Positions 25,325 through 62,438 are shown, counted from the whole stretch's first letter. The stretch is DNA of 62,970 bases, filler included, from Reclinomonas americana ATCC 50394 (GCA_048213135.1; 4 parts of 4 records of this genome joined end to end with filler, not necessarily neighbours in it), one strand, 5' to 3'. Numbers and translations are program-made. The notes: generated by a model from the letters alone, not told the origin.

Positions 25325-30007
<4,683 letters not shown>

Positions 30008-54573: not shown

Positions 54574-54673
54574 NNNNNNNNNNNNNNNNNNNNNNNNNNN
54601 NNNNNNNNNNNNNNNNNTTAATTAATTAANNNNNNNNNNNNNNNNNNNNNNNNNNNNNNNNNNNNNNNNNNNN
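54574..54673. other. Scaffold gap with TTAATTAATTAA spacer
   Basis: 100-nt N block containing the spacer, flanked by low-quality TACG-rich sequence. Confidence 0.95.
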
Positions 54674-55049: not shown

Positions 55050-58000
55050 CTACTTTTTCAGTTGGTGGCAGCTGCCAGCAACCGGTGCGAGCTGCACGGG
55101 GTGAGTGGAGAGGATGACGCTCTGCGTGCATTGTGTTGGTGAGTGGCAGTCACGTCACTGGTGGGAGGGGGGCAGCAAACGCAACGTGGCAGCAGAAGAT
55201 GGAGGAACCATGCTTGAAGCCGAAATCAGCGGGCTGCGAGATCCGGGGCATCTGTGAGCTTGCCTGCCTGTACACAGGTATACAAGGTGCGTGTATGTAT
55301 GTGCACGACTTACCGGGCAACCCTGCTTGCCAACGTACTCGGTCAGGTACTTGCCCGGGTGAACAATGGCATTCTGTGCGGGTGCGGGGTGAGTGCGTTT
55401 TTTGTGAGTGAGAGCCATTCTTATCTGCTACATCCAATCATTACTGACCTTGCCAGGCTGGCCCGCGGGTCCGCGCTTTCCAGCCTGCAGCAGTGCGGGG
55501 TGAGTGAACAGCGCGGTGAGCAAAGAGACAAGTGACACGTACGCACCGGTCCGCGATGGCCAATGGGACCCGCCGGGCCATCAGCACCTCGTGCGCCGCG
55601 CTTCCCGGCCAGCCCCTGCTTTCCTCGCGGTCCAGTCTGCATTGGGAGGAGGGAGGCATGAGCGGGACTGGCAGGAGTGGTGCAGATATGTAACGTGTCA
55701 CACACCTTGCCCTTCTCTCCATCCTTGCCGTTCTTGCCGCTCTTTCCAGCAGGGCCAGCCGGACCAGGGGTCTGGCCGTGGTGCGCAAGTGAGTCTCTCA
55801 TGGTGTTGGTCAGCAATCAAAACTGACTCTGAAACTCACGTTGTTGTCCTTGCCAGGTGGTCCACACGGTCCCGCAGATCCACTCTGCGGACGCACATCA
55901 TGAGGGCACACCGCAACGCTGCTTCACAAGACGACGGATTGTGTTGCAACCTTGCCCTTCTTGCCGTTCTTGCCAGCGGGTCCCGGCTTGCCAGGGTGGC
56001 CTTCCTGGAAATTGCACGCAAGTGAGTAATGGTGGTGACAGCGAGCTCGTTGGATCACGACCTGCACATACCGGACCAGCCTTGCCGAGCGGACCCTTCG
56101 GTCCCGGCTGTGCAGACACAGATGCAGGCGATGAGATGACAGAGGTAGACTCTTCACGGGTCTCAGCATCGGGCTGTACCTTGCCAGGATGGCCGTCCTT
56201 GCCGGGCTTGCCGTCGTGTCCGGGAGGTCCGGGTGTCTGCCAGCAAGAATTCAGTACGGCTTACTCGTGTGGCAGGGAGCGTGCAACAAGAGCAAGGTAC
56301 ACACACCTTGTTGTCCTTGCCGTTCTTACCCGCCGGTCCGCGTGGGCCAGCAGGTCCATCCTGCGTGCATGTTTCAGTTGCTCATGTGCCTCTTTTCATG
56401 ATTAGGGAGCCGAACGCCCCAACACACCTTGCCGGGCTTGCCATCCTTACCGGGCTTGCCATTCTGCCAGTACATGACTGTGAGTGGAACGAGCGACGAA
56501 CCACAGGCTCAAGGGCACACACACCGCTCCATCCTTGCCGGGTTTGCCCGGGTGACCGCGAGGGCCAGTCTGTTTCGTGATGTTAGTGGACGACACTTCT
56601 GGAAGTGAGGAGGTACGCGCGCGGCATACCTTTCCGTTCTTTCCCTCAGTACCCGGAGGTCCTCGTGGGCCAGCCGGACCGCGCTGGCGAAAACAAGAGA
56701 GACCTCACTCAGCACGGTGAAGTGACAAGGAACAATGACAACTTTAGATTCGATCACACCTTGCCGTCTTTGCCATCCTTTCCGTCCTTGCCCGGCTTTC
56801 CGCTCTTGCCTTTCTTGCCGGCCGGGCCGCGCGGACCCGTCTCCTGCGCAATGCAGAATGAGGCACATCAATACGCACGTAGTATGTGCAGAAAACGCAC
56901 AAGATTGTCCTTGCCCGGTTTGCCAGCCGGTCCAGCAGGTCCCGCCGGGCCAGTCTGCCCACACGAACTGTGAATCAGTCCGTGCGCACCAATCGCGAGG
57001 GGAATGCACGAACACGATGCGCGCACCTTGCCTCGCTTACCGCGCTTGCCGGACTTGCCGGGATGGCCATTCTTGCCCGGCTGTTGGAGTGTGCGCACGA
57101 ATTTAGGTTGTGTCCACGATCGACATACAGCAGGCACCGAATGCGCAAGGGGGACGTCGACGCAAACCTCGCCGTCCTTGCCGTCCAGCCCCTTTGGTCC
57201 TTGGGGTCCAGGCTTGCCGTCCTAGCAGTAGGATTGCTTCTGCGTCAGTCACAACTGCTTCTTGTGAGTGTGTGGAAGTGCAAGTGCATACCTTGCCGTT
57301 CTTGCCGTGCTTGCCGTTCTTGCCATTCTTGCCAGCGAGCCCACGAGCACCGGGCTGTGCAGTTATTCACACGGCGTGAGTGCGTGCGCGAGTGAGACAG
57401 GAACAAAGCAACGACCACAGCGTCACACCTCTCCATCCTTGCCCTTCTTTCCAGCAGGTCCTCGTGTGCCGGCCGGTCCACGCTACGCATGTAAACCGCA
57501 GGTAAGTAACAAGCACGGTCGGCGTGTTTGTAAGTGGGCAAGAAGGGCACCTTGCCGTCCTTGCCATTCTTGCCATTCTTGCCGCGAGGGCCAGTCTGCA
57601 GCAAGGAGGTCAGCAAGCGCTAAGCGGAATCAAGACTACACACACATACAAGTGGGAAGGCGCACCGTGCAATAATCTGTGCGAAGCACCTCACTGGTCA
57701 GGGACTCACGACCACCAAGAAACGCAGTGACGCATGTATACCTTTCTCGTTGTCGGCACTCTCGGAGAACTGGAACTCCTCCTCTTCGTCCTCCTCACTC
57801 TCTTCCTCTTCTTCCTCCACCTCGGTAGCTTCCTCGTTGTTCTCCTCCTCCTCTTCCTCCTCCTCCTCCTCCTGCTCCTCGACAAAAAAGTCTGCTGCCT
57901 CTTCGTCGATAGCAGACTCGTCCTCCTCGTCAAGCAAGTCGTCTTGCATATCCTCGTCGTCCACGAAAAGCTCCTCGTCCACTACATGAGATCAAAGAGA

Positions 58001-58329
58001 GTGTGAAACGGTGAACGCGCGAAAATGAAACGCATGTGTGCGCGGGAAAAAACGCCGCGGCACACTCTCGCTCTTCCGCTTCTCTGTGTGCGGTATTGCA
58101 CTCACCGTTGCTATCCATCACCGCGTCCTCGAACATCTCCGCTTCCATTGTTTCCGCCGATGCTGTGTCTGCAACAGTCGCGCGCGCGCGCGAGTGAGTG
58201 TGGAGCTTTCAAGGGTGGGGGCAGCGAGTTCTCAGAACCGGAGGCAGACGCACGAGCAAAGCAAGCCACACACGTGACAGCCAGCAATGCTAGCAAGAGC
58301 CCAAATGTTGCCACCTTGGAAGACAACAT
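55050..58329 (-). CDS. Secreted collagen-like protein B: signal peptide, Glu/Asp-rich domain, about 325-aa Gly-X-Y region, short Cys-containing C-terminal domain
   Basis: Signal MLSSKVATFGLLLALLAVTCVACFARASA; acidic exon 57741-57982; 11-nt microexon 57666-57676; 18 Gly-X-Y exons separated by phase-0 introns; C-terminal NAIVHPGKYLTEYVGKQGCP-PADFGFKHGSSIFCCH-SVILSTHPVQLAPVAGSCHQLKK*. Confidence 0.85.
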
Positions 58330-58549
58330 GGCGTGCCTTCTCTCCAGATTTGTGCAAAGAGTAATTCAAAGTAGCCGTTGTGAGATTTTGGCGCGCAAAG
58401 AAGCAGCGGAGACGAGAAAAATCACACCAAGCCTCTCTTTACTGTCACCTTTAAAGCGGGCTGTGGCCTGATCGTTTCTTGCACTCCACTCTCTCGCACG
58501 CAGTCTTCATGATCATGCGGCGCCGTGCAACACGTACTACGCGTTGCTT

Positions 58550-60630
58550 CTACTTTCCACCTGCAGGGTGGCAGGTTCCCTTGATCGGGCGAAGCACATT
58601 CTTCGCGTCGAAGACGATGCCCTGCACGCAGTCGAGACCATCGTCAATCACGGCTTGAGCACGCAAGTCAATGAGACGAAGAGAGAAAAAAACACACCTC
58701 GCAGCACTTGAACTGCTTCTTGCCTTTAGCCTTGAAGGCAAACTCGCCATTCTACACGCGCGACAGCATAAGAGACAAATGGTGGCAACCGCTTGAGGTA
58801 AGACGAAACAATACCTTGCAGCCAGCAACTCCGATGCGATACACAAAATAGCTGCCATCGGTGGCCACAGCGTTCTGCGAGGGGGCGTGTACGCTTGAGG
58901 CGAGTGCAACTGAATGCGCGAGTGTAAAATACGCACCTTTCCGTTCGGGCCAGCTGGGCCAACCGGGCCGGCCTAGGAATGCAGCGTAGCGAGTAATGTG
59001 TTTGTCAGTGACACACTATGCTTGCATGCACGCAGAGTGCTGCATCACACCACTCACCGGTCCCTGAGCTCCACGCGGGCCAGGCGGACCAAGCTCTCCT
59101 TGCTTGCCGTCGCTGCCTGCAGCTCCTGGCAGACCTTGCGGTCCAGTCTGCACACACGATAAGCTTGTAAGTACCACTCCACACGCCAGTCTTCACACCA
59201 TGTTCGTGGCGAATGTACCTTGCCTGGCTTGCCGTCCTTGCCTGCTTTGCCCGGCTTGCCTGCGGGTCCACGCTTGCCCGGCTGTGCTAGTTGGTGAGCT
59301 GCAGAAAGGGCGTATTGCAGTGAACAGTGCAGGCTGGAAGCAAACGGACCTTGCCATCGGGGCCGGCGGGTCCGCGTGGTCCGTCAGCGCCATTCTGCAG
59401 GAGAGTTAATAACACGACCAATAATAGTCGACTGAACCGCCAAGACACACAAACACACCTTGCCAGGCTTGCCATTCGGTCCGGCAGGTCCTTGCGGTCC
59501 ACTGTGGCCGAGCTACACAAAAATAAAACAGTCGTGAGTTCAACTCCAGCAACGCACCACTTCGAGCACGCCCACCTTGCCAGCCTCGCCGCGCTTTCCT
59601 GGCAGTCCTTGCTGCACGCGCGCGCACTCGCGTGGTGAGCAACAACACACACACACACACATAGAAACACACTCGAAAGAGAAGAAAACTAACCTTGCCG
59701 TCTTTGCCATCCTTGCCGTCCTTTCCCGCAGGTCCACGAGCTCCTGGCTGAAACAGTGAAAGAAGGTGAGCACGATGGGCTACCCGTGGTTAGCGTTTTG
59801 CACACGCTCACCTTGCCGTCGTGACCAGGCTTGCCAGGCGGACCCGCCGGTCCGGGAGCACCGTTCTGTCGGCAAGCGCAAACTCGTGTGAGCGTGTGCA
59901 GATACAACTACGCGCACAGGAGTGCACAAACCTTGCCAGGCTTGCCATCCTTGCCATCGAGTCCAGGCTGGAGGTGCAGGCGACAAGGGATGAGTGAACA
60001 TGTCAAGGAGGCCAGAGTGCTTTCTCTGCACGCGCACACCTTGCCGTCTTCGCCTTTCTGTCCGGCGGGTCCGCGTGGCCCACGTCTGCCAGTCTTGCCC
60101 GCTATTCCCGCGGGTCCTCGAGGACCGGGTGGACCAGCCTGCATGGAAAGAGACGCGATGAGCCCGACATGCAACATTGCACGCAGCCAGCCGCGCACGC
60201 CATCTCCCAAACAGACACGCACCTTGCCAGGCTTGCCATCCTTGCCGTCCTTACCGTTCTGCGCCCTGCAGATTCAGCGAACAAGGGCAGCCACAATCGA
60301 GAAAAATGCAATATGAGCGATACCTTGCCGTCCTCGCCCAGGGGGCCAGCAGGTCCACGCGCACCAGGCTTGGGGTTTCTGCTGGTGAGCACACTGCAGG
60401 GTCGCTCGCCACACCGAACGTTCTGCTCACAAACCTTGCCATCTTTTCCAGGCTGGCCAGCTGGGCCACGAGGTCCGGGAGCGCCAGTCTGCACAACGCA
60501 GAACAAGGGGCGTGAGAGAGAGAGAGAGAGTGAGACGTCAACGAGTGCGACTGCGACACGAGCGACATAAACATGCCTCGCCACGCGGGCCTCGTTTGCC
60601 ACGAGCACCATCATGGCCGTCAAGACCCGG
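58550..60630 (-). CDS. Collagen-like protein A (paralog of B), 5' end lost at the gap
   Basis: 14 visible Gly-X-Y exons (252 codons, uninterrupted), then NAVATDGSYFVYRIGVAGCK-NGEFAFKAKGKKQFKCCE-GIVFDAKNVLRPIKGTCHPAGGK*, homologous to gene B. One GC-AG intron (donor at 60576). Confidence 0.85.
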
Positions 60631-60656
60631 CTGCATGCACGGCATTGTCAGCGCTA

Positions 60657-60765
<109 letters not shown>

Positions 60766-60863
60766 GTACGTACGTACACCTACCTACCTACCGTACCACC
60801 GTACCGTACCGTACCGTTCGTTCCGTTCCGTTACCGTACCGTACGTACCGTACCGTCCGTTCC

Positions 60864-60963
60864 NNNNNNNNNNNNNNNNNNNNNNNNNNNNNNNNNNNNN
60901 NNNNNNNTTAATTAATTAANNNNNNNNNNNNNNNNNNNNNNNNNNNNNNNNNNNNNNNNNNNN
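60864..60963. other. Scaffold gap with TTAATTAATTAA spacer
   Basis: 100-nt N block containing the spacer. Confidence 0.95.
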
Positions 60964-62438
60964 CAGCGCGGCCGGCAATGCGGTTGTGGGAGGCACTGCG
61001 ACTGTGACTGGTCTGGTGACTGGCGGCAGCTTGACGACGGCTGGTAATGTGAGCGCGGCCGGCAATGCGATTGTCGGCGGCACTGCAACTGTCACTGGGT
61101 TGGTTACTGGCGGCAGCCTGACCACGGCCGGCAACTTGAGTGCGGCCGGCAATGCGATTGTCGGTGGGAGTGTTGCAGTTGGGTCAACCTTGTCTGCAAC
61201 GGGTCTAATCACCGGCGGCAACGTGTCGACTGCTGGCTCGCTTAGTGCTGGTGGACTTGTGACTGGCGGTAGTCTCACAACGGCCGGCAATGTTTTTGCA
61301 GCCGGTTTATTGTCTGCCGGCGGCAATCTGTCGGTAACCGGAACTGCTACCATTACTGGTGGCCTCACTTCCGCCGGCGCAGTTAGTGTCAGTGGATCGT
61401 CAACGTTCACTGTTGGTACCGGCACCACTTCTCTGGGAGGCGCGTTGTCTGTGACAGGGACAACTACTATGTCTTCGACTCTGACTGTTGGTGGCTTGTT
61501 GGCTGCTGATGGTGGCTTGCGCCTTGCTTCCAGTGCGACTGCTATTGGTGCCACACCCTTTGTTGCTCGTCTCCAGTACATTGATTCGGGTGTAGATCAG
61601 GTGAGCAGCGTAATGTGTGTTGTTTGTGCCTCCCTCTCGCCCAGTTTTACTCACTTGCATATTCTGTTCGTTAGCTCTGGCTGCGTGGTGCTCATGCGTA
61701 TGTGGAGTTGACAACGACGGGCTCCGGCTCTCCCTCGGACTTGCGGCTGAAAACGAATGTTCAGAACATTGACGACGCTCTTGGCGCGATTCGTCGGCTG
61801 CAGGGACACACTTTTGATTGGGCCGAGGTGCGTCCGCTCTCTTACGCTTTTTGTTAGTTGGATTGGCGCCAATTGTTGCATTCTTTCGCCCGCAGACTGC
61901 CAAGGAGATTGGATATGTCCCTGGAAGGAAATCTATCGGATTCATCGCCCAGGAAGTGGAACAGGTATTCCCGCAGCTGGTCTCGCTGCAGACGCGCCCT
62001 GATGGATCGGTACGTGAAGTGGTATGCTTGGGTGTTTATTGGGGTCTGTCATGAGCTTAAGTCTTGTGTACACAGTCGATTCGTCGTGTGGATTACGGGC
62101 CTGTGGCTGCAATCTTGGTTGAGGCCGTGAAAGAGCTCGAGGCAAGAGCTGCGCCGGTGGAGCGCGTTGAAATTGCTGAAGCACGAGTAGATGCCGCTGA
62201 GACGCGGGTGGAGGCCGCTGAGACCCGTTTGAGGATTACCGAAAGCGATGCAAAGGCCACTGCTGACCGCCTTCAAGCTCTCGAGGCTCTGGTGCTGCGG
62301 ATGAACGCCGTAGATTCCAGTCAGCCGTGGTGGCGTGACGCCGCCCTGATCAACTTGCTTTGCTGTGTACTTTTGTGCATTGCTGCGCTGTTGTTCTGCA
62401 TCGGGGCGGTTGCTCGCCTTCGCGGTGGCAAGCAATAA
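60964..62438 (+). CDS. Fibre-like G/T/A/V repeat protein with Peptidase S74 (intramolecular chaperone) domain, coiled-coil and C-terminal TM; 5' partial
   Basis: 29-aa repeats SAAGNA(V/I)VGGTATVTGLVTGGSLTTAGN(V/L); SDLRLKTNVQNIDDALGAIRRLQGHTFDW; IGFIAQEVEQVFPQLV; VDYGPVAAILVEAVKEL; TM ALINLLCCVLLCIAALLFCIGAV. Introns at 61601-61674, 61828-61895 and 62010-62075. Confidence 0.88.

Follow-up and report, generated by a model that had tools for sequence, protein, structure and literature searches.

Until now a single lineage has supplied the evidence for the 54-base-pair (54-bp) exon model of collagen gene growth, and its duplications are so old that they no longer align. Animal fibrillar collagen genes, to which this model of Yamada applies, have short phase-0 helix exons in multiples of nine nucleotides (9n), which are explained by exon duplication and unequal crossing-over (PMC2852846, PMC4450265); their exons of 54, 45, 99 and 108 nucleotides (nt) begin at a Gly codon (PMC2852846). 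Genes that resemble them in exon type and mode of growth are described here from Reclinomonas americana ATCC 50394 (GCA_048213135.1). Genes A and B are collagen-like and lie in tandem, with 220 bases between them, on the minus strand at 55050..60630 of a stretch of 62,970 nt, filler included, which is called the window below. The original prediction for this locus had given the animal exon rule correctly and had inferred for both genes a convergent 54-bp exon.

Very probably the two genes belong to a family of secreted collagen-like genes that grew by exon duplication and inherited a single exon register, and in which genes A, B and C kept one helix length. R. americana adds an independent second example, and here the process can still be followed, with introns up to 94% alike.

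Helix exons and growth of the gene family

The window holds 32 helix exons, 14 of gene A and 18 of gene B; gene A is interrupted within its helix by a gap, and its upstream part probably lies on contig C1864. Exon sizes were checked with a local phase-blind exon caller and with a whole-gene parse in which any phase and any Gly-X-Y register were allowed. The parse returned the predicted sizes for 31 of the 32 exons (gene B 18/18, gene A 13/14) and the local caller alone for 29; the sole mismatch of the parse, at 59611, is an exon of 54 nt with a 45-nt intron instead of 36 nt, and 36 is settled by the counterparts of this exon in genes B and C. The minus-strand location and the phase-0 introns were likewise recovered: all helix introns of A and B are in phase 0, with GT/GC-AG ends and lengths of 57-88 nt, while 12 exons measure 54 nt and 29 are multiples of 9. 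None begins at Gly, in agreement with the earlier claim that the exons start at Y and end in Gly-X.

With these boundaries the reading frames of A and B contain no internal stops. Gene B encodes a predicted product of 516 amino acids (aa), which runs from a signal peptide through an acidic domain and the 18 helix exons to a 59-aa Cys-containing domain and a stop, and the window portion of gene A encodes 313 aa up to its stop. The three N-terminal introns of gene B are in phase 1. A branch-point-like motif precedes 30 of the 36 acceptors of A and B (2000 shuffles: mean 12, maximum 24). Donors with G at +5 and T at +6 follow 13 of 15 exons without terminal AG in genes A-D versus 18 of 54 AG-ending ones (Fisher P=3e-4), and across all genes the stronger-donor pattern occurs at 50/53 non-AG versus 46/151 AG exon ends. 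Because branch-like motifs and donor compensation owe nothing to the Gly pattern, they support the use of these sites independently. Two caveats concern gene A, the first 54-nt exon of which requires a GC donor (60576), with an AAG acceptor at exon 60368. The exons of A and B are confirmed as real, at junctions that are predicted.

At least seven collagen-like genes are present in the R. americana genome, in two tandem clusters, and all are cut in phase 0 between X and Y (Gly-X/Y, the slash marking the intron). They share a layout of signal peptide, acidic domain, Cys motif, Lys/Asp/Pro-rich Gly-X-Y helix and Cys-rich C-terminal domain. Besides the 5' part of gene A, contigs C1864 and C1865 carry gene D in full and gene C in split form. 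Gene A would continue on C1864 with a signal peptide, an acidic domain and four further helix exons (45, 54, 63, 54); the TG repeat at the ends of both C1863 and C1864 and the agreement of the exon series of A with that of B point to this join. Scaffold C538:11667-52870 holds three giant gapped genes, E1, E2 and F, the last with more than 90 helix exons. Their layout is that of A-D, but the C-terminal domain is a different one, of three Cys-rich repeats encoded by exons in phases 0, 1 and 2. Midway through gene F, Lys-ending exons give way to Asp-ending ones with stronger intronic donors.

Genome-wide, the Y-start exon pattern gave 99 matches versus 3 in controls, and 97 of the 99 lie within the family loci or their small contigs. 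For the Gly-start pattern the counts were 8 and 7, three of the 8 being internal Gln codons. On twelve small contigs, 35 of 43 internal exons identified with a crude caller are Y-start multiples of 9. Non-helix exons of these genes occur in phases 0, 1 and 2. No exon chain was found around the pattern matches on C58, C46, C152, C1113, C611 and C1437.

Exon duplication, one of the two origins considered in the original prediction, is borne out by an all-versus-all comparison of introns, in which the highest score among 1890 between-cluster pairs served as the homology threshold. A homologue within the same gene was found for 73 of the 90 introns of F, 10 of 32 in E1/E2 and 2 of 14 in D (one adjacent pair). 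In gene F the similarity of homologous introns reaches 0.94 and even spacings are commonest, that is, two-exon blocks. Where two introns score above 0.5, the exons upstream of them have sizes that differ by 9n in 12/12 pairs in E, 25/51 in F and 1/1 in D, and hence exon size drifts freely.

A single founding intron may by chance have lain in phase 0 between X and Y, after a Lys codon giving a strong donor. Each copy of exon plus intron would inherit the Gly-Lys/Y cut, and only 9n units would preserve both frame and helix. The helix evidently lengthens by tandem copying of an exon with its short intron, after which recombination between triplet repeats shifts exon size by 9 nt at a time. The 9n sizes and the one fixed register would follow from this duplication mechanism, 54 being merely near the middle of a broad range.

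Genes A, B and C go back, through old duplications of the whole gene, to a single gene with 19 exons and 108 triplets. The common series is 45, 54, 63, 54, 54, 54, 45, 36, 54, 45, 36, 54, 54, 36, 54, 45, 63, 90, 36, or 972 nt, and the helices of A, B and C now measure 972, 981 and 975 nt. Each pair of genes has 16 of 17 boundaries in common, a value reached by 0 of 50000 permutations; gene D has three in common with the series. Identity at the X and Y positions is 37-43%, Gly third positions are 41-48% identical versus 36-41% expected, and introns at matching positions resemble each other no more than other introns do (44 pairs, P=0.55). Gly is kept at 108, 105 and 107 of the 108 positions of A, B and C, respectively. 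No triplet was gained or lost among them; the only insertions are four single residues, located at interruptions that end in Asp-Asn-x, and three of these four interruptions form N-x-T sequons. The intron that is missing differs from gene to gene (A, 54+45=99; B, 45+36(+3)=84; C, 90+36=126), and at least two of these differences are losses on any rooted tree.

The 5' half of gene C recurs on C211 (L099:3500-5100) as a 90% identical copy joined to other exons, with a sister copy on C569 (L100:4100-5200). Within 11 exons these copies show exons 1 and 3 fused with loss of exon 2, one change from 54 to 36, one from 54 to 42 and one from 45 to 51 with a lost donor, as well as several Gly changes. 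The four length changes indicate that length alters easily once constraint lifts, and the constant helix length of A, B and C was most likely maintained by selection. The decaying helix of C211 and C569 is followed by Cys-rich and other exons.

Competing explanations of the exon pattern

The convergence on a 54-bp exon was examined against a smooth size distribution on the 9n grid. In the raw window set the 12 exons of 54 nt give P=0.05, but these 32 exons are not independent, since A and B share 16/17 boundaries; for the 19-exon ancestor, 8 are found versus 5.1 expected (P=0.10; any bin, P=0.30). Exons of 54 nt are the mode of this ancestor and tie for the mode in gene D (4/15), and the fusion 99=54+45 is present as in animals; a true building unit convergent with animals, its six triplets suiting helix folding or splicing, would account for these features. 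However, among perfect Y-start 9n exons, to which the E and F sets are limited, 54 nt accounts for 5/32 in E1 and 1/11 in E2 (mode 63 in both together) and for 7/92 in F (mode 36), and over all genes for 25/169, which is the third rank after the modes 36 and 63. Non-helix C-terminal exons of A and B likewise measure 48-72 nt, 108 is absent in A-D, and the animal sizes 54 and 45 with their sums (99, 108, 162) fit 18 of the 32 window exons. Exon length plus the 9n grid explains the excess of 54 in this null comparison, an outcome by which the original prediction had itself proposed to be judged. A 54-nt unit is largely refuted and quite unlikely to be real.

The in-frame exons have also been proposed as cassettes that are skipped for fibres of variable length. 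The 9n exons of the window could indeed be dropped without loss of frame or register, and such omissions might be tolerated in E and F, which are long and repetitive. Against this, three old paralogues retain one helix length of 108 triplets despite saturated divergence, the introns are short (57-88 nt), and weak exon ends are compensated by strong donors. Outside bilaterians skipping is low and usually accompanied by long flanking introns, although exceptions with short introns are named (PMC6142364). Skipping for variable fibre length would be improbable.

Separate insertion of many introns at Lys AAG proto-splice sites of an intronless collagen gene, the second origin raised in the original prediction, is very unlikely. 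AAG ends 141 of 205 exons, 53-83% of the AG sites in A-D lie at X/Y regardless, and the introns of A, B and C are mutually non-homologous. In E1/E2, however, 270 AG/G sites are available at Y/Gly, the animal register, and 6 at X/Y, while 43/43 kept exons end at X/Y; insertion would have ignored the 270 better sites. Of the 92 exons of gene F, 37 lack a terminal AG (36 of them end in Asp codons) and the register is still X/Y. G follows the intron in only 19 of 205 exons, and homologous introns stand at regular spacing within one gene next to homologous exons. The chance that all ends fall at X/Y under AAG insertion is 2e-4 for the ancestor (18/18) and 0.07 for D. Introns spread across the available AG/G sites, with copies at unrelated places, as proto-splice sites or introners would produce, were not seen in this comparison, which is confined to collagen genes.

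An exon unit inherited in common with animals, its boundary slid by one codon, would explain the phase-0, 9n exons on both sides and the common sizes 45, 54 and 99 (PMC2852846). The host is a jakobid, very distant from animals; EF-1alpha of this genome agrees at 100% over 338 aa with the R. americana sequence, Histiona coming next at 87% and Jakoba at 84%. A TRAP1 search, with about 60% identity to all its matches, did not place the organism. About 200 junctions would need to slide together, the terminal domains differ, and fibrillar collagens are placed in the animal stem (PMC2852846). Scans of the R. americana genome with PF01410 (COLFI/COLF1) and PF01413 (C4) gave no match, the controls being silent and the genome fragmented. 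Common descent with the animal exon unit is thus scarcely credible, and the independent origin that had been proposed is upheld by the host, the other register and the missing COLFI and C4 matches. That the genes are dead or mis-parsed repeats, with regular exons as an artefact of the Gly-X-Y search, can practically be dismissed: the gene models call for one GC donor and two AAG acceptors, the parse rewards Gly periodicity and the exons are predicted from DNA, but the frames are open from signal peptide to stop, Gly is kept while introns are saturated, and branch-point-like motifs and donor compensation are present.

Several points weigh against growth by duplication with an inherited register and constant length. 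The junctions of all genes are predictions from DNA, and the contig order C1865-C1864-C1863, based on like microsatellites where the contigs end and on the exon series, is likewise a probable one. None of the 49 introns of A, B and C has a homologue, so that duplication there is extrapolated from D, E and F, and AAG insertion in A-D alone is disfavoured only moderately. The E and F sets were pre-filtered for perfect Y-start 9n exons; the parse calls dropped (10/53 in E, 4/96 in F) were gap-cut, junction or non-helix calls and two that were one base short in a base run, and none was an intact exon in another register. The length constancy of A, B and C could in part reflect less slippage in diverged repeats. 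New in R. americana are the 108-triplet series, duplications that can still be seen, and the refutation of both the 54-nt unit and AAG insertion. A search of titles and abstract openings, most subscription journals lying outside it, found nothing on jakobid collagens or the X/Y exon register, and the available portion of PMC6492006 mentions collagen for animals only.

Features of the window and of related loci

The coordinates of genes A and B are given in Table 1.

Table 1. Parts of genes A and B and an adjoining repeat, numbered from the first letter of the window (exon lengths in nt in brackets)
Feature	Position	Strand	Remarks
Gene A, 14 window helix exons	58937..60630	-	parses and paralogue match
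Gene A, helix exons 1-5	60630-60577 (54, GC donor), 60488-60435 (54), 60368-60324 (45, AAG acceptor), 60258-60223 (36), 60138-60040 (99)	-	
Gene A, helix exons 6-10	59967-59932 (36), 59865-59812 (54), 59747-59694 (54), 59611-59576 (36), 59512-59459 (54)	-	
Gene A, helix exons 11-14	59394-59350 (45), 59281-59219 (63), 59147-59058 (90), 58972-58937 (36)	-	
Gene A, 99-nt exon	60040..60138	-	ancestral 54 + 45, precise intron loss; intron still in B and C
Gene A, C-terminal Cys-containing domain	58874-58815 (60), 58751-58698 (54), 58621-58550 (72 incl. stop)	-	61 aa, three phase-0 exons
Gene B, exons 1 and 2	58106..58329	-	exon 1: hydrophobic signal peptide, start codon ATG 58329, probable but uncertain donor 58253; exon 2: 58168-58106; phase-1 introns
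Gene B, acidic domain exon	57981-57742 (240)	-	
Gene B, 11-nt micro-exon	57676-57666	-	Cys immediately before helix; restores frame between acidic domain and helix
Gene B, 18 helix exons	55449..57595	-	parses and paralogue match
Gene B, helix exons 1-6	57595-57551 (45), 57482-57429 (54), 57354-57292 (63), 57221-57168 (54), 57080-57027 (54), 56954-56901 (54)	-	
Gene B, helix exons 7-12	56843-56760 (84), 56683-56630 (54), 56569-56525 (45), 56463-56428 (36), 56360-56307 (54), 56236-56180 (57)	-	
Gene B, helix exons 13-18	56107-56072 (36), 56004-55951 (54), 55884-55840 (45), 55771-55706 (66), 55636-55547 (90), 55484-55449 (36)	-	
Gene B, 84-nt exon	56760..56843	-	ancestral 45 + 36, intron loss, plus one codon
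Gene B, three helix interruptions	55706..56954	-	exon end Gly-Lys-Asp-Asn-x, then 9n+3 exon (84, 57, 66)
Gene B, C-terminal Cys-containing domain	55373-55314 (60), 55233-55186 (48), 55121-55050 (72 incl. stop)	-	59 aa, three phase-0 exons; open frame, GT-AG
TG microsatellite	60654..60863	-	intron upstream of gene A's first window exon, contig end

The window joins contigs C1860, C1861, C1863 and C1867, with gaps at 28712-28811, 54574-54673 and 60864-60963 and a 12-base linker; C1862 and C1864-C1866 are left out. Neighbours across these gaps need not adjoin in the genome, and the contig ends carry pyrosequencing-like noise. The assembly break within gene A, upstream of its first window exon, is attributed to the TG microsatellite at the contig end.

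The 99-nt exon of gene A matches Pfam Collagen with E=7.7e-6 at 26 bits, slightly below the cut-off of 27.2. Its first C-terminal exon aligns at 35-40% with B, C and D, and its C-terminal domain is presumed to be a trimerisation domain; a Pfam scan of the two gene A C-terminal exons of scannable size and a Protein Data Bank (PDB) search with a profile of the first C-terminal exon of A-D gave no match, so that no relatives of the A-D terminal domain were found in these databases. The C-terminal exons of gene B were picked among alternatives by resemblance to gene A. The signal peptide of gene B has a hydropathy peak of 2.5 at residue 6, and residues 26-130 comprise 56 Asp/Glu and one Lys/Arg. 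An N-x-T glycosylation sequon spans the splice junction at two of the three gene B interruptions, and gene C has one further interruption with a sequon.

For the E/F C-terminal domain, neither viral contigs (30 pattern matches) nor prokaryote genomes (148) yielded a locus that could be confirmed with its alignment, and a PDB sequence search returned two matches with E values of 0.6-1. An Atlas search gave scores below 0.8 throughout. A search of representative proteins with one F exon gave five matches, of which the 98-aa P0243 (49%) looks real; the other four are repeat artefacts. Two metagenome matches to the two-exon junction pattern were discarded as chance matches in WD40-like reading frames.

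In gene D, long Lys/His/Gly-rich tandem repeats within large exons flank the helix (L007:6927-6269 and 4074-3540, minus strand); that their His-rich stretches bind metal or silica is speculation. Gene A has a Lys-Arg-Arg between acidic domain and Cys motif (C1864, about 760-720, minus strand, L008), absent there in B and C as judged by eye, and this is a possible pro-protein convertase site. A lone E2-type helix exon with bits of flanking intron stands in repeated non-collagen sequence on C76 (L103:5030-5130) and C1051 (L104:4980-5080), which looks like capture by a mobile element. At C538:42660-42848, between two gaps, F-type exon starts are found on the opposite strand, probably on a mis-oriented scaffold piece.

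Window positions 60964-62438 (plus strand) hold a gap-cut gene with spliceosomal introns, which encodes Gly/Thr/Ala-rich repeats followed by a Peptidase_S74 intramolecular chaperone domain (Pfam E=3.7e-6, above cut-off), a coiled coil and, at the C terminus, a membrane segment; the predicted product resembles a trimeric phage-fibre-like surface protein. Contigs C1 and C2 (over 1-2 Mb, long uninterrupted frames, EF-Tu-like match) look bacterial, and the assembly probably includes co-cultured bacteria.

Likely product and comparison with known systems

R. americana feeds from a substrate-attached lorica (PMC11145212), which bears spines; Histiona is loricate as well and Moramonas is without a lorica (PMC4772810). 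The helices of A, B and C carry net charges of +33, +54 and +41 (in gene B, 108 triplets plus three added residues), with Lys at X 44-55 times, Asp at Y 18-25 times and Pro at Y in 21-23 of the 108 triplets. The rise of the collagen helix is 0.286 nm per residue. Secreted chains with an acidic leader and a basic helix would trimerise from the C-terminal domain and form triple helices with a length of about 93 nm, which charge pairs would stabilise as in bacterial collagen-like proteins (PMC8968730), and Cys motifs at both ends would cross-link the chains by disulfides into an extracellular structure. This structure could well be the lorica or its spines, the alternatives being a cyst wall, a stalk or a prey-capture coat. 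The literature search described above gave no account of lorica composition, and within that search the present genes provide the first candidate proteins for a jakobid lorica.

The constant length of A, B and C makes the formation of heterotrimers directly testable. Co-assembly of the three equal-length chains as an ABC heterotrimer is a tentative suggestion; a crude count of charge pairs lends it no support over homotrimers, placing AAA first, the best ABC order fifth of 27 and BBB last. It is rather unlikely, somewhat more so than co-assembly as such, that the chains form an ABC heterotrimer of 108 triplets, with small Cys-rich C-terminal domains that align it, acidic pro-domains that keep it soluble and disulfides that link it into lorica or spines, while E1, E2 and F supply long variable tethers. 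Were it so, the logic of animal collagen genes (growth by exon units, intron loss, fixed length and sub-functionalisation of chains) would have a full second origin across the eukaryote tree.

The long Gly-X-Y run, 108 triplets with Gly at 105-108 of them, and matches to PF01391 are shared with collagen-like proteins of any kingdom. Cnidarian minicollagens likewise have a signal peptide, a pro-region and Cys motifs flanking Gly-X-Y and form a disulfide-linked capsule wall; their helix is much shorter and their Cys pattern differs. They may serve as a functional analogue for a role in the lorica. Bacterial collagen-like proteins share the many charged X and Y residues, said to stabilise the helix without hydroxyproline, and a non-collagen trimerisation domain, but are intronless and anchored to the cell wall, and no sequence link between their terminal domains and those of the jakobid genes was found. 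The four secreted paralogues of Blastocystis ST1, identical in the mid to upper 30s per cent and all of 63 triplets (PMC5608401), set a protist precedent for fixed length among diverged paralogues; Blastocystis, however, is a stramenopile, and its proteins are called bacterial type (PMC5608401). Type IV collagen, including that of the unicellular Ministeria vibrans (PMC5395295, PMC5560861), has an interrupted helix and tandem copies as well, but its split Gly codons and paired C4 domains were not found in the jakobid genes, in which all helix introns are in phase 0 (the C4 controls were silent).

With animal fibrillar collagens the genes further share later exon fusion (99=54+45) and a helix length fixed across paralogues. 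They differ in that jakobid exons start at Y and end in Gly-X whereas animal exons run from Gly to Y, and in that 36 and 63 are as common as 54. The helix has 324 residues, with three interruptions in B, versus about 1014 uninterrupted ones in the D-periodic fibrils of animals, the C-terminal domain has 59-61 aa versus the 233 positions of the COLF1 model, and the N-terminal domain is acidic. The comparison separates traits forced by the mechanism (phase 0, 9n sizes, frozen register and exon fusion) from animal accidents (the Gly start and 54). Genes A-F are like animal fibrillar collagen genes in their growth, fusions and fixed length, and are not members of that group.

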